Of a stretch of DNA of 64,000 nucleotides, positions 37,649 through 63,138 are shown in pieces; within the stretch, counting starts at the first letter, position 1, and each line of letters opens with the position of its first letter. The notes under the pieces were generated by a model. The model was not told the DNA's origin. It did no database searches and was given only the letters and a program-made list of their open reading frames with translations. Position numbers and translations under genes: made by a program. The stretch is from Planctomycetota bacterium (GTDB taxonomy: Bacteria; Planctomycetota; GCA-002687715; CAIWVZ01): positions 608,001 through 672,000 of the forward strand of contig JBGANV010000002.1 in NCBI GenBank assembly GCA_044222185.1, in the 5' to 3' direction.

Positions 37649-37820
37649 GCGCAGCGTCGCGCGCCGTCGGACGGCAGGGCTTTGCCCTGCCTGTCCGCGC
37701 GCTTCGCCTCTCCTTGAGGCCCGATCGCTCTCGCTTCGGCGCGTGAATTCTTGCGCCGCGCCGGCTCGCCTGCCGCCCACGAAGCCCTGCTGCAGACGGC
37801 GTCTCAATCGTCCAAAGTAC

Positions 37821-37851
37821 CTTTGGCATTCTCCGAAAAAGATGCGAGACT
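37821..37851 (+). promoter_or_regulatory. Putative sigma70-type promoter of paralog 2
   Basis: TTGGCA-N17-GAGACT, homologous to 36298-36328. Confidence 0.45.
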
Positions 37852-37978
37852 CCGCGGCGGTCCCGTCAACCGCAAGGTGTGCGTCGAGTCGGCGATTCGG
37901 CAGTCCGCGACGACCCCAACCTCGAAGCGTCTTCCACGGTCTCAACCCGGTCGCGCTCGCGACCATTGGTGTCCAGCC

Positions 37979-39175: not shown

Positions 39176-39503
39176 TCCGGGAGCGTTTCGAGGGCCTGCC
39201 ACGGAGGGCCCGACATCCTGAGCACGGCGGACCGGGGAAACCTGGCCCGCCGTTTTCATTTCATCGGGCAGCTCCCGAAGGTCCGGCCCCGTGCGGTCTG
39301 GGGCTCATCCTCACTTGACCTGGATCTGTGAAAACGCTTAGATCTTGCCGTGCGCACCGTGGATGAATGCCTTCGCTGCGGTGCACGAAACGAAGCGTTC
39401 CGTCGACGAGCCATCCGGCTCGCGCAAGTGATCACGGTGGGTTGCTCTCACTTGACGAGTGGAGCACGAGCGGGCGCGCCGCGGTCAGGTGGAGAAACGT
39501 GTC

Positions 39504-41931: not shown

Positions 41932-41943
41932 GATTTCGCTCCT

Positions 41944-42978: not shown

Positions 42979-44333
42979 GAGTCACCTCCCGCCGCGGCGA
43001 TCCGGAAGAAGCGCGAGCGAGCGATTCCATCCACGGCGTCCAACGTCTGTCGAACGGAAGCGACCCGGCCAGTCGCTACCGGGCGGGTGATGCCCGCGAC
43101 CGTGTGGGCCCGGCCGTCGACCGTCCTTCTGAGTTCGTCGAAGCGCACGCCGGCCGCCGCGAGGTAATCCAGAAGGTCCGACGGCACGACACGGTCCGCG
43201 TCAGCCGAGACCGAGACGAACCATTGCGGATCCGGCGTCGGGCGCGCGTCTCCGGGTCGCGCCACGATTCGCGATGCGGGCCACGGCGCCGAGCCCCGCG
43301 TCACGCGAAGCACGTCGTCGAGGAGTGCCGCAGCCGTGGGTTCTGGACCCGCTCCGGGTCCCGACAGGAAGATCGGACCCGTGCCGTCGCACGAGAACAC
43401 GATGCCGTTCTCAGGACCTTCGACGGTCGCGAGCGGACCGCGGGCGGGAACGCATGCGGGTGCTACCCACGCGTCGAGATCGGAGCCGGCCCGTGCGGCG
43501 GCAAGCGGCTTGAGCGCGTACCCGAAGTCCGCGGCACTCAGGATGTCGATGCGATCCACGCCTCCGATTCCCTCGACGGCGATGGCCTCCGAGTCGAGCG
43601 CGCGGCCGAAGATCCGCTCGCAGAGCACGGAGACCTTCCGGGCCGAGTCACGCCCGTCGAGGTCGGCACTGGCGTCGGGTTCGGCGAGCCCGAGGCCGCG
43701 CGCCCGCTCGAGCGCGGCCGCGAGCGTGGCCCCCGTTCGTGCCATGGCGCTCAGCACGAAATTCGACGTGCCGTTCAGGATCGCCTCGAACGAACGGATT
43801 TCGCTCGTCTGCAGCGCTCCGTTCAGGACGTGGAACAGGGGAATGCCTGCGGCGACGCTTGCTTCACACTCGATTCGTGCCCCGGCACGTGCCGCAATCG
43901 CCCGCAGGTTCGCGCCGGCGCGTGCCAGCAGTTCCTTGTTGGCCGTGACGACGGGTGTTCCGCGTTGCAGCAGCCTGGAGATCAACGGGACCACGGGCTC
44001 GACGACGCCGGTCGCTTCCACGACGACGTCGAAGATCCGGGATTCGAACTCCGCGGCATCATCGACGATGCGCGACGATCCGCAGCCGGCTTCGCGCGAG
44101 CGGCGCGCGTCACGAACGAGCACGTCCGTGATGACGAACGCGCAGCCGTGGCGGGCAGTGACCTCATCCGCGCGGTCGCGAAGGCGCTGCGCGAACGCTG
44201 CGCCGATGCGGCCCAGGCCGATCAGACCGATGGTGAGCGTGCGCGGCCTCAGCGGGCGAACCCCGAGCGGGTCAGCGGGTGCTGCGGTACGCGCGTCAGG
44301 AAACGGTTGGGTTTGTGAAAGGGTCGACGTCAT
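42975..44333 (-). CDS. hom: Homoserine dehydrogenase
   Basis: GLIGLGRIG, VVTANK, EASVAAGIP, ILNGTSNF, AEPDASADLDGRD and GPGAGPEPTA motifs. Confidence 0.92.
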   Translation of the reverse strand: MTSTLSQTQPFPDARTAAPADPLGVRPLRPRTLTIGLIGLGRIGAAFAQRLRDRADEVTARHGCAFVITDVLVRDARRSREAGCGSSRIVDDAAEFESRIFDVVVEATGVVEPVVPLISRLLQRGTPVVTANKELLARAGANLRAIAARAGARIECEASVAAGIPLFHVLNGALQTSEIRSFEAILNGTSNFVLSAMARTGATLAAALERARGLGLAEPDASADLDGRDSARKVSVLCERIFGRALDSEAIAVEGIGGVDRIDILSAADFGYALKPLAAARAGSDLDAWVAPACVPARGPLATVEGPENGIVFSCDGTGPIFLSGPGAGPEPTAAALLDDVLRVTRGSAPWPASRIVARPGDARPTPDPQWFVSVSADADRVVPSDLLDYLAAAGVRFDELRRTVDGRAHTVAGITRPVATGRVASVRQTLDAVDGIARSRFFRIAAAGGDS

Positions 44334-44735: not shown

Positions 44736-45662
44736 ATGAAACAAGAACGGGAGCACAACGCGACATCCGCTCCCTTGCTGCGCTTGTTGGCGCGGGGGCG
44801 GCCGGAGCAGGTGTGCGCCGCAGCGATCGTGCTCGGCGCGCTGAAACCTGCGACGCCCCGTGTGTTGCGAGCGCTTCAGCGGGCCTTCGCGGTGGCTCCC
44901 GTGAGCGTTCGCCCGTACGTGCTCGAGGCCATCGGACATCAGGGCCTGAAGGCGGCGATCCACATCCTCGTTCCCATGCTCGTCACCACCGGGCCCACGC
45001 GCGACCAGGCGGCGCAACTCGTCGCCGAATGGGGCGCAGCGGCGGTACCGCATCTGCGACGTGCAGCGGAGAGGCTTTCACCGATCGAGCGCGCCATCCT
45101 CGTTCGTGTCGCGTTGCGCACGGCGTCGCCCGCCGCGATCGATTGGTTCGCGGCGGAACTGGCCCGGAGTTCCGATGGTGCGGCGCGTGCACTGTTCGTC
45201 GCCATGCGCCCGCTGATCCGGAAGCTTGCCGTGTCGCGCCGCCAGGCCCTCGGCCGCGCCCTGCTCTCCGGGATCGAGAGGGATTGGGCGACCATGGGCG
45301 GCGTTGCGCGCTCGGCGCACGTCCGCCTGCTCCGACAACTCACGGCCGCCTCGTTCGCCCCTCGGCTCATGCGAGCGCTCAAGCTGCGGCGCAACGCCGA
45401 TCGTCAGGCTCCCATCCTCGCGATCCTGCACTCGACGCGCATCCCACCGCGCCTGCGCCCGGCGTTGCGTGCGCTCCTCGATCCGCTGCTCTTCGCCCAG
45501 GACGTCCGACTCCTTGCGATGCCGGCGTTCGAGATTCTCGCGCGGCAGTCGCCGCCGCTGCTCGATGCCGAGCTCCTCAGCCGAATCGCCACGTCGGCAG
45601 CCGCGCCTGTGCAGGCTGCGGCGCTCGAGTATGCGGCGAGTGCGGCCACCGTCGCCCGGTGA
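44736..45662 (+). CDS. Hypothetical helical (HEAT-repeat-like) protein
   Basis: Ala/Leu/Arg-rich amphipathic helices (CAAAIVLGALK; VLEAIGHQG). No firm family assignment. Confidence 0.5.
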   Translation: MKQEREHNATSAPLLRLLARGRPEQVCAAAIVLGALKPATPRVLRALQRAFAVAPVSVRPYVLEAIGHQGLKAAIHILVPMLVTTGPTRDQAAQLVAEWGAAAVPHLRRAAERLSPIERAILVRVALRTASPAAIDWFAAELARSSDGAARALFVAMRPLIRKLAVSRRQALGRALLSGIERDWATMGGVARSAHVRLLRQLTAASFAPRLMRALKLRRNADRQAPILAILHSTRIPPRLRPALRALLDPLLFAQDVRLLAMPAFEILARQSPPLLDAELLSRIATSAAAPVQAAALEYAASAATVAR

Positions 45663-45689: not shown

Positions 45690-47441
45690 TCAGAACTGAA
45701 TGATGGCCTGGAAGTAGATCGCGAACGCCGCTTCGCCACCTGCGTGGGGCGAACCGTCGGTGGGCACCGGGAAGAACAACGCGTTCGACATCGCCGTGGC
45801 AGTCTCGCCCGGGAAGAAGATCGACGCGTTGGCGCTGAACAGCACGTTCTCGTTGTAGAAGTACGTGGCGAAGACGTCGATCTCCTGCCCGAACACGCCG
45901 GTACCCCAGCCCTCGTTGTCGGCGGTGATCGCGTACAGGAACCCCGCGCCCAGCTCGATGTCCTCGGACACCAGCATGGACCCCGCGAACTTGGCGATGT
46001 GGATGTTCGCCATGGGGATCTGGTCCATGTTCCCGTAGCGGCCGCCGCCCGGGAAATAGGGGTGCTGGATGTCGTCGCGGTCGACGCGAGTGACGCGTTC
46101 GAAGTGACGGTTGACGTAGAGCGGCTGGAATCCGATGTCGCCCGATGCGAGGCCGTCACCGCCCTGGGCGTAGTAGTAGCCGAGCGCGAGGATCGGCTTC
46201 AGGCTCCCTGCTGGATCGATGCGGTAGTTGATCAACGCCTCGCCGACCCATCCGTGGATCGCGCGCGTATCACCCGTGAGGCTGCGCCGGCTGAACTCCT
46301 CGCCCATCTGATAGGCGGCCTCGAGGTTCAAGGAGAGGATCCCGTCGAAGACCGAGATGTCGGTCAGCAGGACCCGTCCTCCGAGCGTCCATGTCGTCCC
46401 CAGGATCGGTGGCGTGTACGTGCCGTTGAATGCGGACGCCGTCGAACCCGTGACGAAGATGTCGGATGCGTTGGGCCGCGCGTCGAAGTAGATGCCATAG
46501 CCCTCGACGGCCAGATTCTTCGCGAGCTGCGTCTCAACGTAGGCTGCCGCCAGTTCGTCCTCGTCGAAGTCGGAGAACGCGGTACCGAGCCGCCCGTCCG
46601 ACGCCGACTCCTTCGAGTAGAGCGTGGTCAGCGTCAGGTCCTTGCTGGGTGACCATTGGACGACGACCGCATCGTGGACGGTGCCGTCCGCGAACGAGTT
46701 GTTTCCGAGCATGAGCTCGTTCCCGAGGACGACCTCCTGCCGGCCGACCTTGACGTTCATGGTGTCGGCCATGATGTGCTGGAATGCCAGGTAGCCCTGG
46801 TAAAGACCGACCGCTTCGAAGGGTTCGGTGAGGATGTTGAATTGCACCGGCACTGGTACCTGCGTGCTGCTGGCGAAGCGCAGGTAGGAGTTGTTGGCGA
46901 AGGAACCGACCGATTGGAACTCGGTCAGCGCCGTGATCTGCGCGTCATTGGCGCCGCCGCTGGACCGCTCGAGGAGCACGGCGCCGAACCCCAGCCGGAA
47001 ACGGCCATTCAGCAGGATTCCGCTGTCGTCGATCGCCTTGTCGCTGTTGGAGAAATCCACGTTCGCGTGCCGGGCTTCGAAGCGGGTGCGGAAGAGACCG
47101 GTGAAGATCAACCCGCCCTGCAGGGCGCTGAAGATCGATTCGGACGGCGCCGTCTGCCCGACCTGGGGGCGGCGGTAGAAACGGTCGAGCCGCTCGACGC
47201 TCTTTTGGACCGTGTTGATCCGCTCGTTGATCGCGTTGTCCGCCTCGGGGCTGCGCTCGTCGATCTTCTGCTGCATTTCGGCGAGCTTCTGATCGAACTC
47301 GGCTTGCTGATCGGTGAGGCGCCGCTCCAGCTCGGCGACCTTGCGTTGAAGCTCCTGGACTTCCTGTTGACCGAAGAGGGGGCACGCAGCCGCCGGGAGG
47401 AAGAGCGCAACGAGAGCGACACGAGTAAGGGAGCGGTTCAT
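45690..47441 (-). CDS. Alginate-export-family-like outer-membrane beta-barrel with N-terminal coiled coil
   Basis: GAGGA RBS and signal peptide, then a coiled coil. Motifs FRTRFE, LYQGYL, VKVGRQEVVLGNELMLG, FGQEID and FFPGE. Ends IYFQAIIQF with a terminal Phe. Confidence 0.8.
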   Translation of the reverse strand: MNRSLTRVALVALFLPAAACPLFGQQEVQELQRKVAELERRLTDQQAEFDQKLAEMQQKIDERSPEADNAINERINTVQKSVERLDRFYRRPQVGQTAPSESIFSALQGGLIFTGLFRTRFEARHANVDFSNSDKAIDDSGILLNGRFRLGFGAVLLERSSGGANDAQITALTEFQSVGSFANNSYLRFASSTQVPVPVQFNILTEPFEAVGLYQGYLAFQHIMADTMNVKVGRQEVVLGNELMLGNNSFADGTVHDAVVVQWSPSKDLTLTTLYSKESASDGRLGTAFSDFDEDELAAAYVETQLAKNLAVEGYGIYFDARPNASDIFVTGSTASAFNGTYTPPILGTTWTLGGRVLLTDISVFDGILSLNLEAAYQMGEEFSRRSLTGDTRAIHGWVGEALINYRIDPAGSLKPILALGYYYAQGGDGLASGDIGFQPLYVNRHFERVTRVDRDDIQHPYFPGGGRYGNMDQIPMANIHIAKFAGSMLVSEDIELGAGFLYAITADNEGWGTGVFGQEIDVFATYFYNENVLFSANASIFFPGETATAMSNALFFPVPTDGSPHAGGEAAFAIYFQAIIQF

Positions 47442-47776: not shown

Positions 47777-50700
47777 ATGTCTGACTTTCCACCAGGATTC
47801 ATCCTTGGCGGTCGCTACCGGATCGAAGAGCGAATCGGCGTCGGTGGAATGGCCACCGTCTTCCGTGCCTTCGACCAGACCGGGGGAGGTCTGGTCGCGA
47901 TCAAGGTCCTCAGCAAGGACTTCCTGACACGCAATCCGAAGGAGGCCGAGCGCAACCTCCGGCGGTTCCGCCGCGAGGCCGACATCCTCAAGCTGCTCGT
48001 CGGCGACGCCCACGTCGTTCAATTCGTCGACCAGGGTACGACCGAGGACGGCGAGCACTACATCGCCATGGAGCTCCTGGTCGGCGAGCAGTTGCGATTC
48101 CACATCGGTCGCGGCCGCAATGCCATGGGCCTGCGGACCTTCGTCTATCACGCCCGGCTGATCACCGAGGGCCTGGCAGCGATCCACGCGAAGAAGCTCC
48201 TGCACCGCGACCTCGCGCCCGACAACATCTTCATCGTCAAGACGAAAGAGGGCCTTCCCTGGCCGAAATTCCTCGATTTCGGCATCGGCAAGTCACTGAC
48301 GGACAACCTGGACCAGGTCACCCAGATGCTCACCATCATGGGGAAACCGCAGTACTTCTCGCCCGAGCAGGCCCGCGGGCAGGAGCTGACGGCGCCGGCC
48401 GACGTCTACGCGTTGGGTGTCGTCCTCTACGAGATGGTGACCGGGTACGTGCCGCTGGAAATCCACGGCATCGCCGACCTTCGCAAGATCCAGAAGGAAC
48501 CACCGATCCCCATCTCGAACTATCGCGAGGGGCTCCGTCTTCCCGAGGACCTTCGCAACGTCATCATGCGCTGCCTCGCGAAGAAGCCGGAAGAGCGCCC
48601 GGCGCTCGCCGAGGTTCTCGCGACGCTCGACCGCTTTCAGGTGCGACTCGAGGCCGGGGAGGAGTTCCCACTTCCTGCCAGCGCCACTTCCGGCACGCCC
48701 ACGTCCACGGAGGCGATTGCGCCTTCGACTCAGTCGGAAGGCAGCGCCGTCTCCTCCGCCGCGTCTTCCGCCGCGTTCACCAAGGAATTCAGCGCGGGCG
48801 ACAACATCGGCCGCTTCCAGGTGAAGCAGAAGATCGGGCGAGGCGGGATGGGCGCCGTGTACCTCGCCTGGGACCCGATCCTCCACCGCGAAGTCGCGAT
48901 CAAGGTCGCGTCCCGCGTCGAGGAGGAGAAGGCGCGCCGAGCGGTGCTTCGTGAGGCACGGGCGTCGAGCCACTTGAGCTCGGAGAACGTCGTCACGATC
49001 TACGAGGCGGGAACGGAGGGCGGGGCACCCTACATCGCCATGGAGTACGTCCGCGGGCCCACGCTCGCGGACGTGATCGAGAAGGAAGGGTTCCTCGGAG
49101 GGGACCGCTTCTGGACGTTCGCGCAAGGCATCTGCGAAGGCCTCATCTACGCCCACGAGAACCCCAAGCCGATCATCCATCGCGACCTGAAGCCGGCGAA
49201 CATCCTCTGCGCGAACGAGACGGCGAAGATCACCGACTTCGGCATCGCCACCGTCGCCGCCGGGAAGTCCGGCCCCGCCGTCAGTGATCAGACCGGGTCG
49301 GTGGGCGGCGCCGAAGGCAGTGCGCTCACCATCAGCCCCGAGCAGGCCAACAACAAGCCTGTCGATCACCGCTCCGACATCTACTCGCTCGGTTGCGTCT
49401 TCTACATGATGGCGACGGGTCGCGCGCCGTTTCAGGGCAACCAGATCGCGATCCTCTACCAGCACTCGACGAAGACGCCGGATCCGCCGCAGAAGGTGAA
49501 CCCCAAGCTCGCGCCCGTCGCGCTGGGACCCATCATCCTCAAGTGCCTCGAGAAGGATCCCGCGCAGCGATACCAGTCGGTACGCGAGATCAAGGCGGAT
49601 CTGGAGGCGCTGTTCGTACCCCGAAGCACGGTGGAGAGACCGTGGCATCGGTCGCCGCTGGTTCTCGCGTCGCTTGCTGCCGTGCTGGCCGCGGCGGGGA
49701 TCCTGTTCTGGACCTTCTTCATCCGCAAGCCGCCGGAGGTCGTCACCCGCTTCGACGTCGTCCGCATCGGCGGTGAGCCCTTCCGCCCGGATGCGGGTCC
49801 GACCTTCTCCTACGTCGTCACGACCGACTCCGTTCCGCTGCGCATCTCGGCGACGACCGACGTGCAGCTGATCGCGACGGTGACGTCGAAGACCGACAAG
49901 ACGATCGGTCCGCCCCAGACGATCTCCGTGATGGCCGGCGATCCGCAGCCGCTGAACCTCGTGCTCGGCAAGGGGAGCGGCGAAACGGACGACTACGACG
50001 TGACGATCGAGCGGTCGGACAAGCAGGGCGAGCCGATCACGTTCCACGTCCTGCGCGACGTGAGCCGCCCTACCATCGCCGTGCAGACCTATGGCGCACC
50101 CTTCGTGCCCAACGGCCCCGTGCGAGTCATCCGGTCGCTCCGCCACCTGAACGTCGTCGTCACGGATCCGGCTGGGTTCGACGAGGCCGGCGCGGAGAAG
50201 ACGGTGAAACTCGCGGCGACGGCAAGCCGTCTCGGGCGAATCGAGTCCGAGCTGCTCCCTCCCGAGACCGACTCGAATCTCCGCAAGCTGCGCGTGAAGG
50301 CGTCGGATCGCGCGAACAACGCGTCCGAGATGCTCGCCGACGTGCAGTTCATCACCCCGGCGATCGAGTTCAAGAAACCGTCGACGACGACGCCGACACG
50401 CAACCGCAAGGTTCCCGTGGAGATCGTCGCGCGCGTCGCTGCAAAAGACGGCGTCGTCCCCGGCATCTCCGCCGCCGACATCGATCTGGGCGAACGGGGG
50501 ACGTTCGCCATCACCGTTCGCAGCGGCTCGGAGGTCGTGGAGAAGAAGATCGAACTGAAGCGGGCGCAGGTAGGGTACGCCGGCGAGTTCGAGCTGCCGG
50601 AGAAGCTGGGTACCGACTTCGACTTCTCGATCGAGGTGAGCGTCGACGACGAGGTCCTGGCTGAGTCGGGAACCAGGTTCACGTTCGATCGAACGCCGCC

Positions 50701-53700
50701 GAGCATCCGAGCCACCTGCGGGTCGACGACGGCGGTCTCGGATGCGGCCCCCAAACCGGACATGCCCGAGATGGCCCTCCTCGGCGGGCAGACTCTGGCC
50801 GACGCGATCCGATGCAAGCTGGACGATCACGGTCGAACCGTGCGCGGCGCGACGATCGACGTCACGACCGACCCCGGAACGACGACCCGGGTGACGGTCG
50901 ACGCCAACGGCGACTTCACGCTCCCGCCGACGGAGGCCGAGAAGTTCAAGGTCCATGCGGTCGCTCGGGACCTCGCTGGGAACGAAGCCACGCTGGATTT
51001 CCGCGTCGTGCGCAAGGGCACGCAGGTCTCCGGTCTGCGCCTCGGCACCGACGCGTTCGACATGGGCGCGCGCGTCTACGTGAAGGCCGACGGCATGCCG
51101 CTGTCGGTCACCGTGCTCGAGGTCTCTCCCGGCGATCGCGTGTTCGCCACGCTCCTGGATTCCACCGGCACCAAGCCCATCGGCGCCCCCGTGCCTTTGG
51201 AGCGCAGCGTGAAGGACGCGAAGGTGTGGGAGATCGGCCGTCTACCGCTCGGCCTCGAAGGCGCGACCGCCGCCGTTCGGAAGCTGCGCGTTTCGGTGGG
51301 CAAGGCCGCTGCGTCCGCCCAACCCAGCCCGAAGGATGCGACGATCCATTACGACAACGAGCCGCCGCGCATCGACATCTCCACGGGGACCGATGGGCAG
51401 GACGTCATCAAGTCGGGCACGACGCGAAACATCAGCCGATGGAAACCGATCACGATCCGCGTGACCGACAACGTCGGACTCAACGAGTTCAATCCGTCGA
51501 CCGCCGTGACGATCACCGGCGGCGACCCCTCGGCCGTTCCGACGATCATGCCGGCGCCTCAGCCAGCGTCACAGCCGGTGGATGGCCCGAAGGACGTCAC
51601 GATCGTGTTGGGTCCGCCCGAGAAGGCCGTCGACGGACGCTACGTCCTCGCCGTCGTCGCGCGTGACAACGCCGGCGCGGAGACCAGGGCCTCCATCACG
51701 CTCGACGTCGTCACCGTCGCCGTCGAGTTGCTGGAGGTGAACAATGACGCCGAGGCTGCCAAGTCGACGAGCGTCGACGCCCCCAAGGCCGTCAACTCGG
51801 ACGCCATCTCGCTGAAGGTGAAGGTGGCACCCAATCAATCCGTCCAGCGGCAGCTGGCGATCCGCGTGTTCCCGGAGGATTCCGAGAAGGGCATCGACCT
51901 CGCTCCTGCGACGCTTCCCCCGGACGGGTCGCCGGCGTTCGCGTACACGTTCAAGCTGCCGCGATCGCGGCCGGCGCCCGCCGAGCGCGGCCGCATCACC
52001 TTGAGCGTGAAGATGACGGGCACGAGCGGCTCCGAGAGCCTCGATCTTCCGCCGGTCTACTACATCATCGATTCGCTCCCGCCCGAGTACGAGGTCTGGC
52101 GTGACGGTGAGAAGCAGGACGTCTCGAAGCGCGACGACTGGATCAAGGTCGCCAAGATGAGCAGCCTGCGCCTGATCGTGACCGATGGTCAGGGGAGCGG
52201 GATCCCCGACGGTGCGTTCACTCGCGCCGAGATGAAGACTCCTGCCGAGTTCCGCGTCGAGCGCCGCGATCCGGCCACGATCGCCATCTCTTTCTCGGAC
52301 GCAGGCGAGCTCAAGGATCTCCAGGAGCTGAACTTCGAGGCTCGTGATCGCGCTGGGAACGTCACCCCGATCCGACTGCGCGTCGGGAAGGCGAAGGACG
52401 CGCCGTCGGCCGACATCGCTGCCGACGCGGGCCAGCGGCACCAATTACCGGACAACACCTACGTCCTTCGCGGAACGAAGGTGAAGCTCGTGTTCACGAA
52501 CGAGACCGTCGTCGTGCGGCGCGCCCGCTTCGAGGTGACGAAGGGCGGCAAGTCGGTGATGAGCGACGTCGTCGAACTGAACGAGAAGGTCACCTCGAAG
52601 ACGATCGATCTGGGCGAGAACGCCAACGGCGACCTCGAAGTGCGCTACTGGGCCTTGCGCGCGACGGGGGACGACCCGGAGCCGTTCCAGCGCCACCATC
52701 TCCGGTTCGACCAGACGCCGCCGACGCTCTCCGTCACCTCGGGCGGAGCTGCGGTCACGAGCGGGGCCAGCCTCACGGTCGCGTCCGCGGGCGACGTCCA
52801 GATCGAGACGAGCGACGACGTCACGAAGGGAGCGATCAAACCGGTCGTCTCCGTGGTCCCGAGCGACAGCGCCGCCGGCGCCGACGAGACGACGGCTGGC
52901 GCGTTCAGGCTGCGGATCCCGAGCCTTCGTCCGGGCGGCCGGGTCGACGTCACCGTCCGAGCTGAGGATGCCGTGGGGAACGCGACGAGCCTGACTTTCG
53001 GGCTCCAGATCCCGGCACCCACCGAGCGACCGACGCCCGTCGTGCCCACGCCGGCACCCGTCGTGCGAAGTCTCGACAACGAAACCGTGCGCCAGGAAGA
53101 CCAAGCCCGGACCGGCATTACGTTCGTTCCGGTCTACGATCGTGTAACGCCGGGCCGCGGCGGCACACCGGTCTTCTATATGTCCCAGACAGAGGTCACT
53201 AACGAGCAGTTCCTGCGGTTCGCAGCAGCTTATCGCGCCAAGACGATCCCCTCCGAACTCGTCAAGGGCGCGACGCGGGCGGGGCAGTCGGCTGTCGAGG
53301 AACTCGCCGCGTCGCTGTCTGGGCTGCGGCCGGAGGATTTGAAGCTGCCCGTGGTGAAACTCAACGGGCAGATGGCGCAGTCGGTCGCTGCCTGGGCAGG
53401 TGGTCGCATCCCGACGGCCATCGAGTGGCGGGGGGCTGCGGGTCGGTACCTCAAGGCCGACGCGGACTGGCCCGTGTACATCGAGGACGACGGATCGGTG
53501 AAGTCGGATACGTCATTCTTCTTGCGCGAGAACTTCGCGGTGTTCAGGCCGACACGCGGCGAGCCCAGCCTTTCGACGGTCGATCAGCTGCTTGCAGGTC
53601 AGAGACACTGCCCCTTCGGGATCGTTGGCCTTCCCGGCAACGCTTCCGAGTGGGTTGCGGACGAGAACGGTCTTGCCGTCGGCGTCCTCGGCGGGAGCTA

Positions 53701-53815
53701 CAACTACGCGCCATCGTCGAACATCCACGCGCGTCTCGACAAGCCGCACTACTCCCCGACGAATTCCAATCGCGATGCCGGCGTCCGCATCGTCTGGCCC
53801 AAGAAGGACAGGTGA
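47777..53815 (+). CDS. Membrane Ser/Thr kinase with two kinase domains, Ig-like repeats and C-terminal FGE-sulfatase-like domain
   Basis: Kinase 1: GVGGMATVF/VAIK/HRDLAPDN/DFG/SPE. Kinase 2: GRGGMGAVY/VAIK/HRDLKPAN/DFG/SPE. TM segment LVLASLAAVLAAAGILFWTFFI. Repeated DxxPP...AxDxAGN units. FGE-like TEVTNEQF...GNASEW...GGSY...GVRIV. Confidence 0.9.
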   Translation: MSDFPPGFILGGRYRIEERIGVGGMATVFRAFDQTGGGLVAIKVLSKDFLTRNPKEAERNLRRFRREADILKLLVGDAHVVQFVDQGTTEDGEHYIAMELLVGEQLRFHIGRGRNAMGLRTFVYHARLITEGLAAIHAKKLLHRDLAPDNIFIVKTKEGLPWPKFLDFGIGKSLTDNLDQVTQMLTIMGKPQYFSPEQARGQELTAPADVYALGVVLYEMVTGYVPLEIHGIADLRKIQKEPPIPISNYREGLRLPEDLRNVIMRCLAKKPEERPALAEVLATLDRFQVRLEAGEEFPLPASATSGTPTSTEAIAPSTQSEGSAVSSAASSAAFTKEFSAGDNIGRFQVKQKIGRGGMGAVYLAWDPILHREVAIKVASRVEEEKARRAVLREARASSHLSSENVVTIYEAGTEGGAPYIAMEYVRGPTLADVIEKEGFLGGDRFWTFAQGICEGLIYAHENPKPIIHRDLKPANILCANETAKITDFGIATVAAGKSGPAVSDQTGSVGGAEGSALTISPEQANNKPVDHRSDIYSLGCVFYMMATGRAPFQGNQIAILYQHSTKTPDPPQKVNPKLAPVALGPIILKCLEKDPAQRYQSVREIKADLEALFVPRSTVERPWHRSPLVLASLAAVLAAAGILFWTFFIRKPPEVVTRFDVVRIGGEPFRPDAGPTFSYVVTTDSVPLRISATTDVQLIATVTSKTDKTIGPPQTISVMAGDPQPLNLVLGKGSGETDDYDVTIERSDKQGEPITFHVLRDVSRPTIAVQTYGAPFVPNGPVRVIRSLRHLNVVVTDPAGFDEAGAEKTVKLAATASRLGRIESELLPPETDSNLRKLRVKASDRANNASEMLADVQFITPAIEFKKPSTTTPTRNRKVPVEIVARVAAKDGVVPGISAADIDLGERGTFAITVRSGSEVVEKKIELKRAQVGYAGEFELPEKLGTDFDFSIEVSVDDEVLAESGTRFTFDRTPPSIRATCGSTTAVSDAAPKPDMPEMALLGGQTLADAIRCKLDDHGRTVRGATIDVTTDPGTTTRVTVDANGDFTLPPTEAEKFKVHAVARDLAGNEATLDFRVVRKGTQVSGLRLGTDAFDMGARVYVKADGMPLSVTVLEVSPGDRVFATLLDSTGTKPIGAPVPLERSVKDAKVWEIGRLPLGLEGATAAVRKLRVSVGKAAASAQPSPKDATIHYDNEPPRIDISTGTDGQDVIKSGTTRNISRWKPITIRVTDNVGLNEFNPSTAVTITGGDPSAVPTIMPAPQPASQPVDGPKDVTIVLGPPEKAVDGRYVLAVVARDNAGAETRASITLDVVTVAVELLEVNNDAEAAKSTSVDAPKAVNSDAISLKVKVAPNQSVQRQLAIRVFPEDSEKGIDLAPATLPPDGSPAFAYTFKLPRSRPAPAERGRITLSVKMTGTSGSESLDLPPVYYIIDSLPPEYEVWRDGEKQDVSKRDDWIKVAKMSSLRLIVTDGQGSGIPDGAFTRAEMKTPAEFRVERRDPATIAISFSDAGELKDLQELNFEARDRAGNVTPIRLRVGKAKDAPSADIAADAGQRHQLPDNTYVLRGTKVKLVFTNETVVVRRARFEVTKGGKSVMSDVVELNEKVTSKTIDLGENANGDLEVRYWALRATGDDPEPFQRHHLRFDQTPPTLSVTSGGAAVTSGASLTVASAGDVQIETSDDVTKGAIKPVVSVVPSDSAAGADETTAGAFRLRIPSLRPGGRVDVTVRAEDAVGNATSLTFGLQIPAPTERPTPVVPTPAPVVRSLDNETVRQEDQARTGITFVPVYDRVTPGRGGTPVFYMSQTEVTNEQFLRFAAAYRAKTIPSELVKGATRAGQSAVEELAASLSGLRPEDLKLPVVKLNGQMAQSVAAWAGGRIPTAIEWRGAAGRYLKADADWPVYIEDDGSVKSDTSFFLRENFAVFRPTRGEPSLSTVDQLLAGQRHCPFGIVGLPGNASEWVADENGLAVGVLGGSYNYAPSSNIHARLDKPHYSPTNSNRDAGVRIVWPKKDR

Positions 53816-53823
53816 GGCCGGGC

Positions 53824-56769
53824 ATGGGGGTCGAACGACGCGTGAAGTTGCGACGGCGCTGGCTGAGGGTGGGGGCGGCTTCCGCTCTCGGTCTCGCCAT
53901 CCTGGTCGTCGGCGCCACGCTCGTCGAGCCGATCCGAATCGAGAGGCGCCTGCGCAACATCTGCCGCTCGCTCGAGACCAAGGACCCGCGGATCCTGATC
54001 GTCGAACTGCGCGACCGCGGGTTCTCGGCCATGACGCCCCGCCAAGCCGCGTGTAGGCGCAAGGCGTTCGAGCGCGCCGCCGCGCGCATCATCGCGGGCC
54101 ACCCGGGAGTGAAGAAGGCCGCGGACCAGCTCGTCGATCCCAGCGATCCGGACCGGGAGTACCTGACGGCCGACCAGACGCTCGTGGTGGAACTCGCCGT
54201 TCCGGTCGAGCTCCGCACGAAGGGCGCGAGCCTCCTCGTCGACGTCAACGGCGCGACGCAGAGCTCGATCCCGCTCGACAACGACGAATCGGAGCAACTC
54301 CTCCAACCTGTGCGCGTCGAGCCGGAAGGCCGGCGGACGGAGGTGGACTTCATCCTCGCTGTGACGTTCCACGACGGAACGGAGGCGCGCGTCCCATTGG
54401 TCCGTGGGCTGCGGCTGGGTCGGACGTCGCTGAAACCCGGCCTGTTCGTGAAGGCCGGTGAGAAGCTCATCGCTCTCGACGAGACATCCGAGCCGTCCCT
54501 CCGCGTCGACGTGAATGCCCCGTTGGAACTCGTCGTGCGGTGCGAGCACGGCATCTCTCACGCGGTGGCGCAATGCCCCGAGGTGAGCACCATCAGCCGT
54601 CCGTTCGACGGGTGTCCGAAAGAGGGGATGGTCAACCTCGACGAACTCACCCGGCATCCCCAGTCGATGAGCGTCGAGGTGCGTGCGCGGTCCATCCCTG
54701 GCGTTTCGCGCTCCGCGCGATTCGAACTGCGGGTTCGTGACCCCGCCGTCCCGGCCGTCGCCGGCGTTCGGGTCGCGGGTCAGACGCTCGACGAGGGCGG
54801 CATCGTCAGCACGCGCGAGTCGGCCATCGACGTCGAATTCACGATCCCATCGTTCGAATCGCCGACCGGTTACGCCGCCGAGCTTGCGGGGAAACCGTTG
54901 ACGCTTTCCGGCGGCGCGACGCTCCGTGCGCGCGCCGACCAACTGGACGAAGGCCTGCACGCGTTCGTCATCACCGCACCCGACGGCGTGGCCATGCGTG
55001 CGCAGGTTGCCGTCGATCACACGCCGCCGAAGGTCGTCGCGCGCGTCGATCCCTCCGGCCTCGATCGCCCGATCGAGCCGGGCGCGAATGCGACGCTGCT
55101 CGTGGTGCCCGCTTGCCTGGCGATCAGCGTTTCGGACGCGGGCGCCGTCGCCGCCGGCGATGTGTCGATCCGCGTGGAAGGCCGTGAGCCGCACGTCATC
55201 GACGATCCCGCCGCTCGCGGCGACCCGCACGAGACGACGCGCATCTTCCGATTCCAGGAGCCGGGGTCGACCGTCATCCGCGTGACGGCGCAGGACCGCG
55301 CCGGGAACCGCGCGGACGAGGTCGTGTATCGGCTTAAGACGGTGGATGCCGCGGAAGCGACGGTGGTGACGATCGGCGAGCGACCGTTCCCAGGGACGGC
55401 GACGACGGTCGTTCGGGCCGAGAACCTGCGGGCCGAGGTTCGCACGCTCCTGAGGCTCGACGACGTTCGCATCCTGCTGAGCGCCGCCGGCTCGCAGGCA
55501 TCGCCCGTGGTCGACACGCCGCTGGTTGCGAAGTCCGCCGATCGCCTGGCGGCCGACATCCAGGTCCCCGCACTCGGCGACCGGGGATGCGGGCTCTTCG
55601 ACGTCATCGTCGCTGCCGGCGCGCGCAACATCCTGGCCAGGGGACGGATTTTGATCGACGCGCAGCCGCCCCGCTGTGGCTTCGGGCCGAGCGAGCACGA
55701 CATCCACTGCGTGGGCGGGAGCCACGAGGTTCGGCTGACGGGGCAGGGCCCGCTTGCCGTATCCGTCGTCGACAACGTGGAGGTGGATCAGGCGAGCGTG
55801 TCCGTCGACGGCGCGACCGTGGCGCACGTCCTCGCGAACGACGGCCGAAACGTCTCCGTGATCCTCGGACTGACGCCGGGGACGGCGGGCGCAGTGACGG
55901 TCAGGATCCGTGACACGGCGGGGAATCCGGCCGCATTCGAGTTCCACGTCGTCGGATCGGCGCCCGTGGGCGTGCCGGCGGCCACGAGCCAGCCCACACC
56001 GCCGCTTCGCAACGTGCCTGCCGGAGGGAGCAGTCCGCCCCGCTCGCCCACACGTCAGGTCACGGGGCCGCAGCTCCTCGAAGTCCCGCGGCTCGGCGTT
56101 CACCGACTGGTCCGTCCCAAGCATGGAGTCTCGAAGTTCGACGGGTTCTACCTCGGCGAGCGCGAGGTCGGGGTTCGCGCGCTGCGCGAGTTCGTCCTCG
56201 ACCTTCGCCAGGGCGCGGACACGGTCGCCAAAGGGGGATTCACTCCCGCGGTCACCGCTCTCGCCGAGCGCGCGCTCCAGGCGAATCTCGACGCCGGTCG
56301 CAGCGGCGACATGGCCGCGGGCTGGATGTCCAGCGATCTCGCGCTGGCCTATGCATCGTGGGCCAACGTGGTTGCGCCCACGGAGGGTTACTGGCAGATC
56401 CCCTCGGTCGAGCAGTGGAAGCTGGCTGCCGGGCGCGCGCTCCATCAGGACTCGGTGTACCCGACCACCGCGCACGCCGAGGGCGGTTTGGACCTCTCGG
56501 AGGGCGAACCCGGTGGCGCGCTCTTTGGACGCCAGCCCGAGGCGATTGCGAAAGTTCGTATTAATTTCCAGCCCGGCAGCTTCGGGATCTTCGCCATGGC
56601 CGGCGGAGTCCACGAGTGGTGCGCTGAGCCGTCGGGGCGCCTTCGACTGATCGGTGGCTCGGTTTCGTCCGACAAGGCCGCTTGTCGCATCGATGCCGAT
56701 CCGCCCGCATACGAGTCCGTGCGCCCGGAGGTGGTCGGCCTGCGACTCGCGTTGGTGCCGGTCCGGTAG
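53824..56769 (+). CDS. Membrane-anchored Ig-like repeat protein with FGE-sulfatase-like C-terminal domain
   Basis: N-terminal TM segment. Ig-like units VDHTPP...QDRAGN and IDAQPP...RDTAGN. FGE-like FYLGEREV...IPSVEQWKLAA...MAGGVHEW...GGS...VGLRL. Confidence 0.82.
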   Translation: MGVERRVKLRRRWLRVGAASALGLAILVVGATLVEPIRIERRLRNICRSLETKDPRILIVELRDRGFSAMTPRQAACRRKAFERAAARIIAGHPGVKKAADQLVDPSDPDREYLTADQTLVVELAVPVELRTKGASLLVDVNGATQSSIPLDNDESEQLLQPVRVEPEGRRTEVDFILAVTFHDGTEARVPLVRGLRLGRTSLKPGLFVKAGEKLIALDETSEPSLRVDVNAPLELVVRCEHGISHAVAQCPEVSTISRPFDGCPKEGMVNLDELTRHPQSMSVEVRARSIPGVSRSARFELRVRDPAVPAVAGVRVAGQTLDEGGIVSTRESAIDVEFTIPSFESPTGYAAELAGKPLTLSGGATLRARADQLDEGLHAFVITAPDGVAMRAQVAVDHTPPKVVARVDPSGLDRPIEPGANATLLVVPACLAISVSDAGAVAAGDVSIRVEGREPHVIDDPAARGDPHETTRIFRFQEPGSTVIRVTAQDRAGNRADEVVYRLKTVDAAEATVVTIGERPFPGTATTVVRAENLRAEVRTLLRLDDVRILLSAAGSQASPVVDTPLVAKSADRLAADIQVPALGDRGCGLFDVIVAAGARNILARGRILIDAQPPRCGFGPSEHDIHCVGGSHEVRLTGQGPLAVSVVDNVEVDQASVSVDGATVAHVLANDGRNVSVILGLTPGTAGAVTVRIRDTAGNPAAFEFHVVGSAPVGVPAATSQPTPPLRNVPAGGSSPPRSPTRQVTGPQLLEVPRLGVHRLVRPKHGVSKFDGFYLGEREVGVRALREFVLDLRQGADTVAKGGFTPAVTALAERALQANLDAGRSGDMAAGWMSSDLALAYASWANVVAPTEGYWQIPSVEQWKLAAGRALHQDSVYPTTAHAEGGLDLSEGEPGGALFGRQPEAIAKVRINFQPGSFGIFAMAGGVHEWCAEPSGRLRLIGGSVSSDKAACRIDADPPAYESVRPEVVGLRLALVPVR

Positions 56770-56780
56770 GCGGTCGCGTG

Positions 56781-58004
56781 ATGATCAACCAGCTCCAGTT
56801 TGCGCTCCAGCACCTCACAGGGCCTCGGCGCGGACGCGAAGACGTGTTCGGGCTCGACCGGGTCGCCATCGGTCGGGGCCGCAACAATCAGCTCGCGTTC
56901 GACCCGGTCCTGGATCGGACTGTCAGCGCGCGTCATGCGGAGATCCGCATCGAAGAGGGAGCGGTCGTTCTCTACGACCTCGGCAGCCTGAACGGGACGT
57001 ACGTCAACGGGTCGAAGGTGCGGCGCGTGGTCCTCTCGGACGGCGACGAGATCGGGCTTGGGCGCGAGGGTCCGCGAATGCGAGTCCTCATGCGCTCGGG
57101 CAAGACGCCCAGCCCGATCCAGCCAGGCGACATCCCACCGAGCGTGGCGATCTCGTTCGATCCCGTGATGCCCGACTCCGCGCCTGCGCGCCGTCGCAAC
57201 TGGCTTCTCGTGGCGTGCGGAGTGGTCGCGCTCGCCGCTCTCGGCCTCGCGCTCTTCGTGCTGCTGCGACAGGAGCGGAGACTCGGTGAACTGGCGCCCG
57301 GTGGCACGCCTCCCACGCGCGACCCCGGCGTCGCGGCCGCAGTGCAGCCGACCGCTCCTTCGATGACGGCCGAGCCCACGGGCGCGCTGCTCTTGCGCGG
57401 AGTCCAACTGGACGCGAGCGGTCGCGCCATCGGCGGAGCCGACGTCGGCTATGCCGTGCTCGTGGCTCCAGAGGTCGCCGCCACGACGGGGACCGTGATC
57501 GAAACGGCGCAGGCCTACCTCGCGGCGCACCCTGGTTGCCGCATCGTCGCGTGGGCCGACGGAATCAACGCCCGCGAACGCCAGGTCACCGGGTTTTGGA
57601 GCGGGCCCGTGGTTGGATCGGGGTACGACGGCGCCATCTCCCTTCTTGCTCTCACGACCGGCTCGACCGCGTGGTCCACGCCACAGAGCACGGACGCGCT
57701 CACGAGCGAGAATCTCAAGTCGCTGGCCGTTCGCCGTCCGGGGATCGGTGAGCAGGCGATCTGGCTCGAGCAGCCGCTGCGTTTCTCCGGCGCGCGCCCC
57801 GACGGCGTCGATTCCGCCGACCTCCTGAGCCTGCGCGGCCTGCCCGCAACCTCCCCGGGCGCGCCCATCGTCGACACGACGACGAATCGCCTCGTGGGTC
57901 TTTCCCTCGGTCCCAACCATCCCGGGATCGCCATCGTCGCTCGCCACCTCAAATCCGCCCTCGACCTGATCCAAGGCACGCCCGCGGCGCCGCTGGAACA
58001 CTGA
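56781..58004 (+). CDS. FHA-domain membrane protein
   Basis: IGRG...VSARHAEI...DLGSLNGTYVNG (FHA phosphothreonine-binding residues). TM segment WLLVACGVVALAALGLALFVLL. Degenerate trypsin-like C-terminus. Confidence 0.88.
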   Translation: MINQLQFALQHLTGPRRGREDVFGLDRVAIGRGRNNQLAFDPVLDRTVSARHAEIRIEEGAVVLYDLGSLNGTYVNGSKVRRVVLSDGDEIGLGREGPRMRVLMRSGKTPSPIQPGDIPPSVAISFDPVMPDSAPARRRNWLLVACGVVALAALGLALFVLLRQERRLGELAPGGTPPTRDPGVAAAVQPTAPSMTAEPTGALLLRGVQLDASGRAIGGADVGYAVLVAPEVAATTGTVIETAQAYLAAHPGCRIVAWADGINARERQVTGFWSGPVVGSGYDGAISLLALTTGSTAWSTPQSTDALTSENLKSLAVRRPGIGEQAIWLEQPLRFSGARPDGVDSADLLSLRGLPATSPGAPIVDTTTNRLVGLSLGPNHPGIAIVARHLKSALDLIQGTPAAPLEH

Positions 58005-58515: not shown

Positions 58516-60174
58516 TTAGAGCGTCGTCGTCTGGATCGTCGAGACGGCGGATAGGTAACCCGTTGTCGAGGAAAAGATGGTCGACACCATCCAGACGGGC
58601 ACCGGCACACCGAACGGAGTGTACTCAAGCGAGGCGGTTGCGGTGCCGTCGGGGCCGAGCACCCCATTGAACAACGGGTGGCCAAACCCGAGCTGGTCGA
58701 TCAGCAGCCCTAACGGCAGAGTCAGGCCAAACCATGTCCCCGGCGCCGGCGTCGTCGCCGGATTGACGGTTGTAAACACGTTGGCGTATCGCTGGTTCGC
58801 CCCACCGCAGGTGGCGAGACCGACGTTCAGGTAGTGGTGCCCGGGGGTGATCGACGTGCCGAGAGTTGCGACGACCCCACCGACGAAAGCCGTCCCTCCA
58901 TAGACATACGCAGTATTCGAGGCCGGGTTCCCGATGAGGATCTCGCTCCGCGCGTCGCCCGTCAGGTCACCGATGAGCGACGCAGGGCCTCCGACCGGAA
59001 TGACTTGGAGGAGGCAGTGTGTGTTGCCCTTGTAGATGCGCGTGGCGCCATTTCCACCAACGGTGTACTCGGAGATCCCATCGAGGTCGAGGTCACGACC
59101 ACCAGCGACGCGGTCGCCGAGGTTGATGTAGGACGGCCCGCTCGGCATACCGGCCGTTGAGACGTAGCCGACAGTGCTGCCGTAGTACATTTGGACATAG
59201 CCGCTTGTGGGCGTCGGTGCGCCCGACACGAGAAAATCGTCCATGCCGTCCAGATTCTGATCACCTGCCGGGGCGATGTCGACACCAAAATGATCCCCAG
59301 CGAACGTGTTCGAGCCGACGCCGGTCATGACCGTGAACAGTTGCGGCGTACGAGCCGGGGTGATCGTGTAGATCTCGACGAATCCCTGCGCCGCGGGCGA
59401 ACGATCCCAACCCGGTGCCCCGATGGCGATCGCCGCCCGACCGGTCCCAGTGACGTTCCCCACTCGGCCCACCGAGGACCCGAACGCCGCTCCGTTCAGC
59501 ACCTGAGGAGGGAACGCCGGTGGAGGAGGTGCGGGCGTGAACTGGATCAGCGATGCCGCGAACTGCGTCGTGGACAGTGCCGGATTTCCGAAGTAGAGAA
59601 ACGCGTAACCCGGCGTGTTCGGTCCGCCGTCGGCACCGACTACGAAGTCCTCCATTCCGTCACCATCGGCGTCGCCGACGCACGCAACCGAGATGCCGTA
59701 ACCAGTCAGGTTTGGGACCGGGCATGTGAGGGTCACGATCGGGTTCAACGCCTGGGTCGGCGACGAGAGGTTGGCGATTGCGGCGCCGCTGTAGATTTTG
59801 ATCTGCCCTCCGCCTGCCATCGGCTCGGCGACAAGCACATCGGCAAATGCGTCCGGGTCAAAGCGGCCGATCGCGACACATCGCGCATACGCCCATTTCG
59901 GCGAAGGTATGGCCATCGGGGCGAGAGCGGTTTGAAACACGAGCGCGCCAGTCGCGCCGTTGAACACCTGCAACACGCTCTGGGTGGGCGAGACGGCACT
60001 GGTGACGGCGTACTCCGCAACCGAATCAAGCGTCAAGTCGGCGCCTCCCGCGACGCTGCGACCGAAGTCGGCGGACCCCGGAGGTCCCACATGTGCCCGA
60101 AGGGGTGCCTGTCCCATCCCGAGACCCGTGATTGCGAGGACCGCACCGATCACTCTGATCATCTTGCTGTTCAT
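58516..60174 (-). CDS. Secreted FG-GAP repeat (integrin-alpha-like beta-propeller) protein
   Basis: Signal peptide. Repeats FGRSVAGG, YGISVACVGDADGDGMEDFVVGA, FGSSVGRVG...IAIGAP and FGVDIAPAGDQNLDGMDDF. Confidence 0.85.
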   Translation of the reverse strand: MNSKMIRVIGAVLAITGLGMGQAPLRAHVGPPGSADFGRSVAGGADLTLDSVAEYAVTSAVSPTQSVLQVFNGATGALVFQTALAPMAIPSPKWAYARCVAIGRFDPDAFADVLVAEPMAGGGQIKIYSGAAIANLSSPTQALNPIVTLTCPVPNLTGYGISVACVGDADGDGMEDFVVGADGGPNTPGYAFLYFGNPALSTTQFAASLIQFTPAPPPPAFPPQVLNGAAFGSSVGRVGNVTGTGRAAIAIGAPGWDRSPAAQGFVEIYTITPARTPQLFTVMTGVGSNTFAGDHFGVDIAPAGDQNLDGMDDFLVSGAPTPTSGYVQMYYGSTVGYVSTAGMPSGPSYINLGDRVAGGRDLDLDGISEYTVGGNGATRIYKGNTHCLLQVIPVGGPASLIGDLTGDARSEILIGNPASNTAYVYGGTAFVGGVVATLGTSITPGHHYLNVGLATCGGANQRYANVFTTVNPATTPAPGTWFGLTLPLGLLIDQLGFGHPLFNGVLGPDGTATASLEYTPFGVPVPVWMVSTIFSSTTGYLSAVSTIQTTTL

Positions 60175-60326
60175 GACTTGCTCCGCCCGTTGGGCGCTGG
60201 TTTCCCGATCGTACTGTCGTCGGCAGCTCGCCATTCGACCTGCCGCATCCCCTCCATGCAGCGAGGTCAAGAACCGTTACCGAACGTGACAGAATCCACG
60301 CTGGAGGGCGCTCCTCGACGCCAACA

Positions 60327-63017: not shown

Positions 63018-63138
63018 GGATCCGACTTTCAGAAGGCAATCTCTACGGTCACGCCGCCAACACCGGCGGCACTCCACCGCCTCAACGCGTGGCGTGACGC
63101 CGCCAACGCCGGAGGCCCGGAGTCGGGGATCGATTATC

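Follow-up and report, generated by a model that had tools for sequence, protein, structure and literature searches.

A tandem kinase, a stalk protein and a membrane FHA protein encoded side by side in an uncultured class of Planctomycetota: candidate membrane arm of a larger phospho-signalling set

Introduction

The closest described counterpart of the locus reported here is the threonine-phosphorylation pathway of the H1 type VI secretion system (T6SS) of Pseudomonas aeruginosa (TagQ/TagR, PpkA, PppA and Fha1), in which, according to the accessible part of the source, TagQ/TagR likely dimerise the kinase PpkA via the FGE domain of TagR, and Fha1 is the sole PpkA target (PMC13713981). The locus consists of three adjacent genes (genes 1 to 3, the trio), all on the forward strand, in a stretch of 64,000 nucleotides, referred to as the window, of a Planctomycetota bacterium (assembly GCA_044222185.1, contig JBGANV010000002.1, positions 608,001 to 672,000). 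Gene 1 encodes a tandem Ser/Thr kinase with a predicted periplasmic stalk, gene 2 a kinase-less stalk partner, and gene 3 a membrane protein with an FHA domain. The original prediction took the three for a self-contained analogue of TagR/PpkA/Fha1. From the comparative analysis, the trio is very probably one phospho-signalling unit; an even chance is given to the wider reading that it would be the conserved membrane arm of a larger, class-specific kinase/phosphatase/FHA set, likely informing the cytoplasm about the condition of the periplasm or outer membrane.

As far as the accessible literature allows the comparison, the trio and its linked genes share with the H1-T6SS pathway a parts list of kinase, FGE protein, FHA protein and PP2C phosphatase, and in one relative (G007) gene 2 resembles TagR in being a periplasmic FGE domain without kinase. 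Unlike that pathway, the tandem kinase bears an FGE domain of its own on an Ig stalk of 1100 amino acids (aa), the FHA protein is membrane-anchored and carries a predicted pseudo-protease, the FGE partner is dispensable, and the neighbours are a predicted outer-membrane barrel and an FtsZ-fold protein.

For the individual parts there are precedents, given here as they stand in the accessible portions of the sources. Proteins of kinase-transmembrane (TM)-FGE build are common in Planctomycetota, where the sulfatase-modifying-factor domain is the third most abundant kinase accessory domain, and FtsZ is absent from the phylum (PMC11032199). FGE-sulfatase is one architecture of the Proteo1-family kinases (10.1101/2025.01.12.632604, the word "tandem" being absent from the accessible text), and FGS/FGE domains are described as ligand sensors of C-type-lectin fold in conflict systems built on MoxR/vWA or STAND (PMC7159879, 10.1101/2023.09.22.558884). 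The protease-like (S1C) domain of RsgI9, an anti-sigma sensor of Clostridium thermocellum, binds polysaccharide (PMC12203970). FtsZl1, which occurs in planctomycetes, has an FtsZ-like domain at its N-terminus, a coiled coil, vWA neighbours and kinase genes nearby (PMC2875224). The parts are familiar; for the combination of genes and its natural deletion series no printed account was found, the literature search, with its limited coverage of subscription journals, having returned no paper that describes the gene set, and the tandem-kinase-FGE form might be contained in the supplementary architecture tables of PMC11032199.

Architecture of the Three Gene Products

The three co-oriented open reading frames (ORFs) are separated by gaps of exactly 8 and 11 bp, in agreement with the original prediction (coordinates in Table 1). 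The domain scan with hidden Markov models that had been proposed with it was run on Pfam and placed two kinases, Ig-like repeats and an FGE domain in gene 1, an FGE domain in gene 2 and an FHA domain in gene 3. In gene 1, the two Pkinase stretches (E 6e-86) are followed by a single strong hydrophobic segment, by Big_3_3/Big_13 matches and by FGE-sulfatase at residues 1798-2005 (E 7e-13). Both kinase domains look intact, since the alignment shows that each retains the VAIK-Lys, the helix-C Glu, the HRD-Asp and the DFG-Asp, that is, the residues of an active Hanks-type kinase. In kinase 1, the catalytic-loop Lys is substituted (HRDLAPDN) and a Lys is present in the P+1 loop (GKPQY), while Thr182 and Thr186 of the activation loop are conserved in all 14 orthologues aligned. 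The five units of the type DxxP...DxAG(N), starting at residues 761, 971, 1193, 1432 and 1645, are mutually homologous (hhalign probability 67-98); the beta-rich segments of ~110 aa between them gave no strong match, in profile comparison, to each other or to anything else. The predicted order of two kinases, TM helix, about five Ig-like units and FGE-like tip is thereby confirmed by Pfam, hydrophobicity and hhalign.

Among the 130 script-called kinase genes of the genome holding the window (G000; 7.08 Mb, 93.8% complete), only two are double-kinase genes, and gene 1 alone of these has Ig motifs. Its tip belongs to a divergent FGE subfamily, detected in 7 of 401 genomes at E<=1e-21, and a word-based protein search with the ectodomain returned only the query itself and two short FGE matches. 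Gene 1 is like the planctomycete kinase-TM-FGE proteins in combining a cytoplasmic kinase, one TM helix and a predicted periplasmic sulfatase-modifying-factor domain, as far as the accessible text of PMC11032199 describes them; it is unlike them in its two kinases, long Ig stalk, divergent FGE domain and conserved partners, the other copies being lineage-variable. PDB entry 5nxl, labelled "kinase", was considered as a kinase-FGE precedent and left unused, as it matches like the neighbouring FGE enzyme entry.

The product of gene 2 contains an FGE domain at residues 765-936 (E 5e-8) and, by Pfam, no kinase domain. Next to the N-terminal hydrophobic segment, a weaker second one lies inside the stalk, whose three Ig-like units are of gene 1's repeat family, with a clear motif in only two; the expected TM/Ig/FGE layout without kinase is therefore present. 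The FGE tips of genes 1 and 2 are homologous (hhalign 99.4). The catalytic site of an FGE enzyme we take to be a Cys pair following a GGS motif. At this position, no Cys is found in the tip of gene 1 and a single one in that of gene 2, and because a Cys pair is conserved nowhere among the ten tips aligned, both tips would be binding domains and not enzymes. The gene 2 stalk has no solved relative by sequence. The profile of the gene 2 FGE tip has as best solved match the PorK/GldK ring lipoprotein (E 2e-12), with PorK/GldK family scores of 17-40 bits against a cut-off of 350; a search of G000 for GldM/PorM gave no match, the positive control also being blank. A metagenome scan with the same FGE profile yielded 12 loci of 24-37% identity, which are taken for generic FGE proteins.

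Gene 3 encodes, as had been predicted, an FHA domain (E 3e-18) and one strong hydrophobic segment. The Arg, Ser, His and Asn of the FHA binding loop are invariant in 21 of 21 aligned rows, and the site looks intact for the reading of phosphothreonine. The last 200 residues have no Pfam match, and their protease fold, which is absent from the original prediction, was revealed only by language-model and fold searches: the language-model Atlas assigned them to S1 peptidases (score 0.97), and an AlphaFold2 model reached a pLDDT of 83.5. The alignment comprised 16 of 20 proteins from a profile search, together with five from the loci and the window; a model from three sequences had failed (pLDDT 36). 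Residues 198-403 superimpose on the S1C domain of RsgI9 (PDB 7sjy) with Z 17.6 over 179 residues (root-mean-square deviation 3.4) at 12% identity, and on DegS with Z 17.4, in agreement with Foldseek. Sequence-level tests for trypsin (PDB profile search; hhalign against a trypsin paralogue) were blank, the word-based protein search returned nothing, and the viral fold search gave generic serine-protease matches only. At what we take to be the triad sites, placed by motif, a His is found in 0 of 21 rows (in five, one position earlier) and a Ser ahead of the conserved Gly in three of 21. Judged from model and alignment, the domain is a predicted pseudo-protease of chymotrypsin/HtrA fold without the His-Asp-Ser triad. 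It is like RsgI9 S1C and DegS/HtrA in that a single-pass membrane protein carries this fold at its outer side; it is unlike them in being coupled to FHA instead of an anti-sigma domain, in lacking PDZ and in the absence of the triad. A pattern scan of genome contigs with gene 3 alone gave no relative; in a protein-cluster search, which comes without genomic context, the relatives outnumber those in the class genomes.

A second cluster lies elsewhere in the same genome (G000:C6:82404-85971; L093:4405-8995). Its FHA-TM-trypsin gene, whose His/Asp/Ser motifs look intact, may be an active counterpart of gene 3; after it come the gene of an FGE protein and a further gene of FHA-TM type, with a divergent TPR protein.

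Distribution and Gene Order

The sample comprised 23 genomes of one uncultured Planctomycetota class and 378 other genomes of the phylum (401 in all). With five candidates scored per genome and a threshold of E<=1e-50, an orthologue of kinase 1 was found in 16 of the 23 class genomes and in none of the 378 others; a seventeenth class genome contains a 5'-truncated copy. Double kinase, gene 2 and gene 3 follow one another in this order, without a break, in 14 of the 23, namely G000, G007, G009, G015, G019, G021 and eight genomes of one family of the class (f2), the kinase gene being cut by the contig end in G007 and G015. In G013 the trio is split, with genes 2 and 3 together on another contig, and in G002 and G008 its order is not resolved. 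Genes 2 and 3 are adjacent in all 16 genomes with gene 2. That the arrangement is more than chance is seen from BLAST, where the counterparts in two other families each have the respective gene of the trio as their best match. The synteny on which the original prediction depended is thus present, within this class. Six small class genomes (2.4-3.2 Mb) yielded neither gene 1 nor gene 2, and gene 3 is retained in four of them.

The modules beyond the kinase, stalk and FHA domain vary. Gene 2 consists of stalk and FGE tip in G000 and G019, of FGE alone in G007 (302 aa, with a lipobox-like leader, LAASC, Ala at -3) and of the stalk only in the other 13 of 16, with a decayed FGE remnant in G021 (E 1e-5). 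Four genomes (G009, G013, G015, G021) carry an FGE tip on the kinase and none on gene 2. In the eight f2 genomes, the kinase has ~600 aa without TM helix and ectodomain, and gene 3 is a short FHA-TM protein, while the gene 2 stalk is kept and is homologous to the stalks outside f2 (hhalign 99.6). These soluble kinases have lost the kinase 2 motifs (seven orthologues aligned) and cluster with gene 1 in the tree (support 100/99). Since the FGE tip of gene 2 is mostly absent and the f2 kinase is soluble, the core, as read from the sequences, is kinase, stalk and membrane FHA protein; the FGE-FGE pairing of the original prediction is not universal, and its FGE co-receptor is no part of this core. 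By analogy, with no homology claimed, the f2 arrangement is like JAK-type receptors in having a kinase-less stalk protein and a separate cytoplasmic kinase-pseudokinase; it is unlike them in that the docking link would be an FHA-TM protein. From this natural series of deletions, with FGE-only and stalk-only forms, a soluble kinase and a short FHA protein, the domains of first interest can be read.

Five of the eight soluble kinases (L077, L078, L080, L082, L108) end in a basic-aromatic C-terminal tail in place of the lost TM helix, and these tails look like membrane-targeting amphipathic helices. An apparent fusion of the kinase and gene 2 in G018 was checked and rejected.

The Linked Phosphatase, Kinase-FHA and FtsZ-Fold Genes

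A second operon of the class encodes an FHA-coiled coil-FtsZ-fold protein, an ADP-ribosylglycohydrolase, a PP2C phosphatase and a kinase-2TM-FHA protein, the last with orthologues in 18 of the 23 class genomes. In 12 of 14 trio genomes, no more than ~25 kb separate the PP2C/kinase-FHA operon from the trio. In ten genomes, the kinase-2TM-FHA and PP2C genes converge on the trio, directly or across one gene; they are ~10 kb off in G007 and ~20 kb in G020, and stand beside a short gene 3 in G001 and G004. From this linkage, the PP2C would be cognate to the trio. With a second operon of PP2C, a second kinase-FHA and an FHA-FtsZ-fold gene linked in most relatives, and with the barrel as a steady neighbour, the claim that the three genes form a self-contained system did not hold.

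The FtsZ-like domain matches FtsZ structures (best E 3e-4) and scores 21 on TIGR00065 against a cut-off of 295; the FtsZ signature GGGTG(T/S)G is near-intact in three of ten aligned sequences (of one genus) and lost in G000, where a PF00091 search gave no canonical tubulin/FtsZ match. In the other f2 loci read, the FtsZ-fold gene was not seen beside PP2C. The gene is like FtsZl1, as far as the accessible text of PMC2875224 describes it, in its divergent FtsZ-like domain with coiled coil, its nearby kinase genes and its planctomycete host; it is unlike FtsZl1 in the order FHA, coiled coil, C-terminal FtsZ fold and in having PP2C and ADP-ribosylglycohydrolase neighbours; the loci read, in which no family search was made, showed no vWA gene beside it. 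The apparent co-occurrence of FtsZ-fold gene and stalked kinase in eight of eight genomes was dropped as evidence, as f2 has more-eroded orthologues.

Two large secreted TIG-repeat proteins are encoded head-to-head with the FHA-FtsZ-fold gene (G000:C6:883788-891993; L092). The pairing also occurs in G007 and G019 (BLAST) and, by similar N-termini, in G009 and G015.

The Divergent Barrel Gene

Upstream of gene 1, a divergently transcribed gene encodes a predicted outer-membrane barrel of the Alginate_exp family, for which sequence comparison gave no solved relative. In eight of eight genomes the barrel gene stands head-to-head with that of the stalked kinase, its other flank being variable, and it is present in 19 of the 23 class genomes and in none of the 378 others. 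A scan of 185,579 genomes with a pattern from the barrel alignment returned 18 loci (17 with planctomycete titles, one from an uncultured bacterium), all metagenome-assembled or uncultured. In f2, where nine barrel loci were available, two left out and seven fetched and inspected, the barrel gene stands in six of the seven tail-to-tail with, and zero to two genes from, a second membrane double kinase (~1750 aa), so the barrel-kinase pairing survives a change of orientation; in the five full-length copies of this kinase, a weak FGE-like tip matches the gene 1 tip profile with best E-values of 2e-5 to 0.02.

Long Gly/Ala/Thr-rich proteins without firm Pfam match, possibly surface fibres, have their genes close to the trio in G007 and, in f2, in head-to-head orientation to the barrel gene (L010:3-5333; L086:3642-7499; L087:10843-14373; L088:5376-8693); by eye, the copies of G007 and G005 have a similar C-terminal domain.

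Proposed Model and Alternative Explanations

As for the signal and the output of the trio, which we infer, the following chain of events is proposed. The gene 1 stalk (~ten beta-sandwich units, roughly 40 nm when extended, for a unit size that we assume) would raise its FGE tip, a binding domain and no enzyme, towards the outer membrane; the likeliest partner or landmark there would be the barrel encoded head-to-head, which has an N-terminal coiled coil. Binding of the tip would cluster the tandem kinase and lead to phosphorylation of the Thr182/Thr186 loop of kinase 1. Genes 2 and 3 would provide a two-piece adaptor, composed of a periplasmic stalk and of a cytoplasmic FHA domain docking on the phosphorylated kinase, with the dead protease domain of gene 3 and the FGE tip of gene 2 as optional extra binding modules. 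From the second operon, PP2C would reset the signal, and kinase-2TM-FHA would relay it to the FHA-coiled coil-FtsZ-fold protein, which, its GTP motif being mostly lost, would probably be a scaffold for local envelope remodelling. In its fullest form, this is a class-wide trans-envelope phospho-relay from barrel to tandem kinase on a periplasm-spanning stalk, split stalk/FHA adaptor and FtsZ-fold scaffold, which would control the site of envelope remodelling or division in FtsZ-less bacteria and which one family would have rebuilt as a JAK-like pair; this full form is put forward tentatively and is on balance doubtful. Planctomycete kinases number hundreds per genome and are mostly lineage-variable, and the retention of a single-copy tandem kinase together with its partners throughout a whole class speaks for a core function. 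If linkage means pathway, the outer-membrane-to-kinase-to-FHA logic of the T6SS sensor would also work without a T6SS, and there would be candidate regulators of envelope remodelling in FtsZ-less bacteria, with an FtsZ-fold protein as its candidate output.

Several observations weigh against this chain. Linkage is weaker evidence than usual in this class, because among 19 unrelated neighbour pairs taken from these loci, a small and non-independent sample, 8 (two of the four divergent ones) are adjacent in G000 as well. The second operon lies 220 kb beyond the window in G000 and is unlinked in G019; its FtsZ-fold domain is degenerate in G000 and further eroded in both f2 copies aligned. The barrel persists without stalked kinase in two small genomes, and the tree places the barrel-linked f2 kinase as a paralogue of gene 1 with a support of only 85/84. 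Instead of an anchor, the N-terminus of gene 2 could be a signal peptide that is cleaved off, and with 162 kinase and 55 FGE matches in G000, cross-talk with other partners is possible. Interaction, phosphorylation and expression of the trio are all putative, being read from genes.

Among the alternatives, the one nearest to the original prediction, a self-contained TagR/PpkA/Fha1 analogue in which the FGE tip of gene 2 would dimerise gene 1 via its tip and gene 3 would be the terminal substrate, is considered unlikely. The homology of the two tips and the lipobox-like FGE-only gene 2 of G007 favour it, as does the modelled binding and dimerisation of PpkA by the TagR FGE domain in the accessible part of PMC13713981; against this, a putative FGE partner of TagR type is present in only three of 16 gene 2 orthologues (including that of G000), four genomes keep the tip on the kinase alone, and phosphatase and further FHA genes are linked in most trio genomes. 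What stands of that prediction is the syntenic module of kinase, partner and FHA protein and the TagR-like gene 2 of G007; by analogy, the trio may work like the TagR-PpkA system, yet it fails membership of the H1-T6SS. That it is a regulatory piece which has become separated from a standard T6SS locus, as the shared parts list could suggest, is highly improbable and largely refuted: TssC and Hcp were not found in G000 at its given completeness (E. coli control positive), TssC occurs in two of the 23 class genomes on contigs other than that of the trio, and gene 3 scores 32.9 on the T6SS FHA model TIGR03354 against a cut-off of 120, with its FHA part only. The absence of T6SS genes from the window, remarked on originally, extends for TssC and Hcp to the genome. 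In the loci read, where no family search was made, neither TagQ nor TagS/T was noticed next to the trio.

The trio might also serve as a glycan or ligand sensor, its FGE tips and dead HtrA-type domain binding polysaccharide or peptide that enters via the barrel, and adjust uptake or surface attachment and not cell shape. The lectin-type fold ascribed to FGE, the polysaccharide-binding RsgI9 domain as top protease-fold match of gene 3 (DegS being tied), both from partial sources, and the alginate-export family of the barrel speak for this; the low identity to RsgI9, together with the fact that likeness of fold proves no function, speaks against it, as does the loss of both putative binding modules in whole lineages which keep the kinase/stalk/FHA core, and no transcription factor or sigma gene recurs beside the trio in the loci read (BLAST and inspection by eye, no family search). 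We hold such a sensor to be somewhat less likely still than the TagR/PpkA/Fha1 analogue. As for the conflict systems with FGS domains (MoxR-vWA ternary, DGR or STAND), none was seen here, and no MoxR ATPase, vWA partner or reverse transcriptase stood among those of the neighbours that were scanned, which were only some of them. Improbable in our estimate is a regulator of an undescribed export or surface-fibre machine, in which the barrel would be a secretion pore whose use the trio would time, as PpkA does for the T6SS; the large secreted TIG-repeat or Gly/Ala/Thr-rich proteins recur by the f2 barrel, the G007 trio and, head-to-head, the FHA-FtsZ-fold gene, and PorK/GldK is the best solved match of the gene 2 tip, but the PorK scores are far below the cut-off, and in the loci read there is no recurrence of a gene for an ATPase, a secretin or a motor.

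Features of the Locus and Flanking Genes

Table 1. Features of the trio and of its upstream neighbours (positions in the window).
Feature	Position	Strand	Evidence
Gene 1: tandem Ser/Thr kinase, TM helix, Ig-repeat stalk, non-catalytic FGE tip (predicted), 2012 aa	47777..53815	+	ORF, Pfam, repeat-profile comparison
Gene 1, kinase 1: Lys43, Glu67, HRDLAPDN, DFG	47816..48622	+	Pfam and motif alignment
Gene 1, kinase 2: canonical VAIK, HRDLKPAN, DFG	48815..49576	+	Pfam and motif alignment
Gene 1, predicted TM helix, residues 628-646	49658..49714	+	Hydrophobicity
Gene 1, predicted periplasmic stalk: five Ig-like units and five beta-rich segments, ~220-aa period	49724..53020	+	Pfam, profile comparison
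Gene 1, FGE-sulfatase (C-type-lectin-fold) tip without catalytic Cys pair	53168..53794	+	Pfam, alignment
Gene 2: N-terminal hydrophobic anchor (16-34, putative), helical segment, three Ig-like units, FGE tip, 981 aa	53824..56769	+	ORF, Pfam, profile comparison
Gene 2, FGE tip, retained in only 3/16 orthologues	56116..56631	+	Pfam, orthologue scans
Gene 3: FHA (29-94), TM helix (142-160), predicted trypsin/HtrA-fold pseudo-protease (198-403), 407 aa	56781..58004	+	Pfam, Atlas, predicted fold, Foldseek
Gene 3, predicted pseudo-protease domain: Thr at His site, Pro at Ser site	57372..57989	+	Alignment, fold
Divergent gene: signal peptide, coiled-coil-like N-terminus, Alginate_exp-family predicted outer-membrane barrel ending in Phe	45690..47441	-	Pfam, sequence features
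HEAT-repeat-like gene, convergent on barrel; shortened relative of 468-522 aa neighbours in G006, G019	44736..45662	+	Scan, BLAST

Whether the HEAT-repeat-like gene is a member of the system is uncertain. A promoter and terminator scan of the locus remained at chance level; the single sigma-70-like site in the shared intergenic region of barrel and gene 1 (47637-47609, reverse strand) is directed at the barrel gene and corresponds to one observed against 0.6 expected.

Elsewhere in the class, tandem TssC-like genes on G005:C160 and G013:C8 indicate a sporadic occurrence of T6SS. On the barrel side of the window, an operon on the reverse strand (40750-44333) encodes a homoserine dehydrogenase, an amino-acid kinase and a Cys/Met enzyme dependent on pyridoxal phosphate, and is an unrelated flank. 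At 36455-40694, three paralogues in tandem encode secreted proteins of ~390 aa whose N-termini are nearly identical, the single one scanned being without Pfam match. Downstream of the trio (58516-63999), FG-GAP repeat proteins and a subtilase are encoded, which are not kept beside the trio in relatives. Further upstream (8519-19335), three kinase genes are each found beside a gene that by eye looks to be of the extracytoplasmic function (ECF)-sigma type, an arrangement common in planctomycetes.

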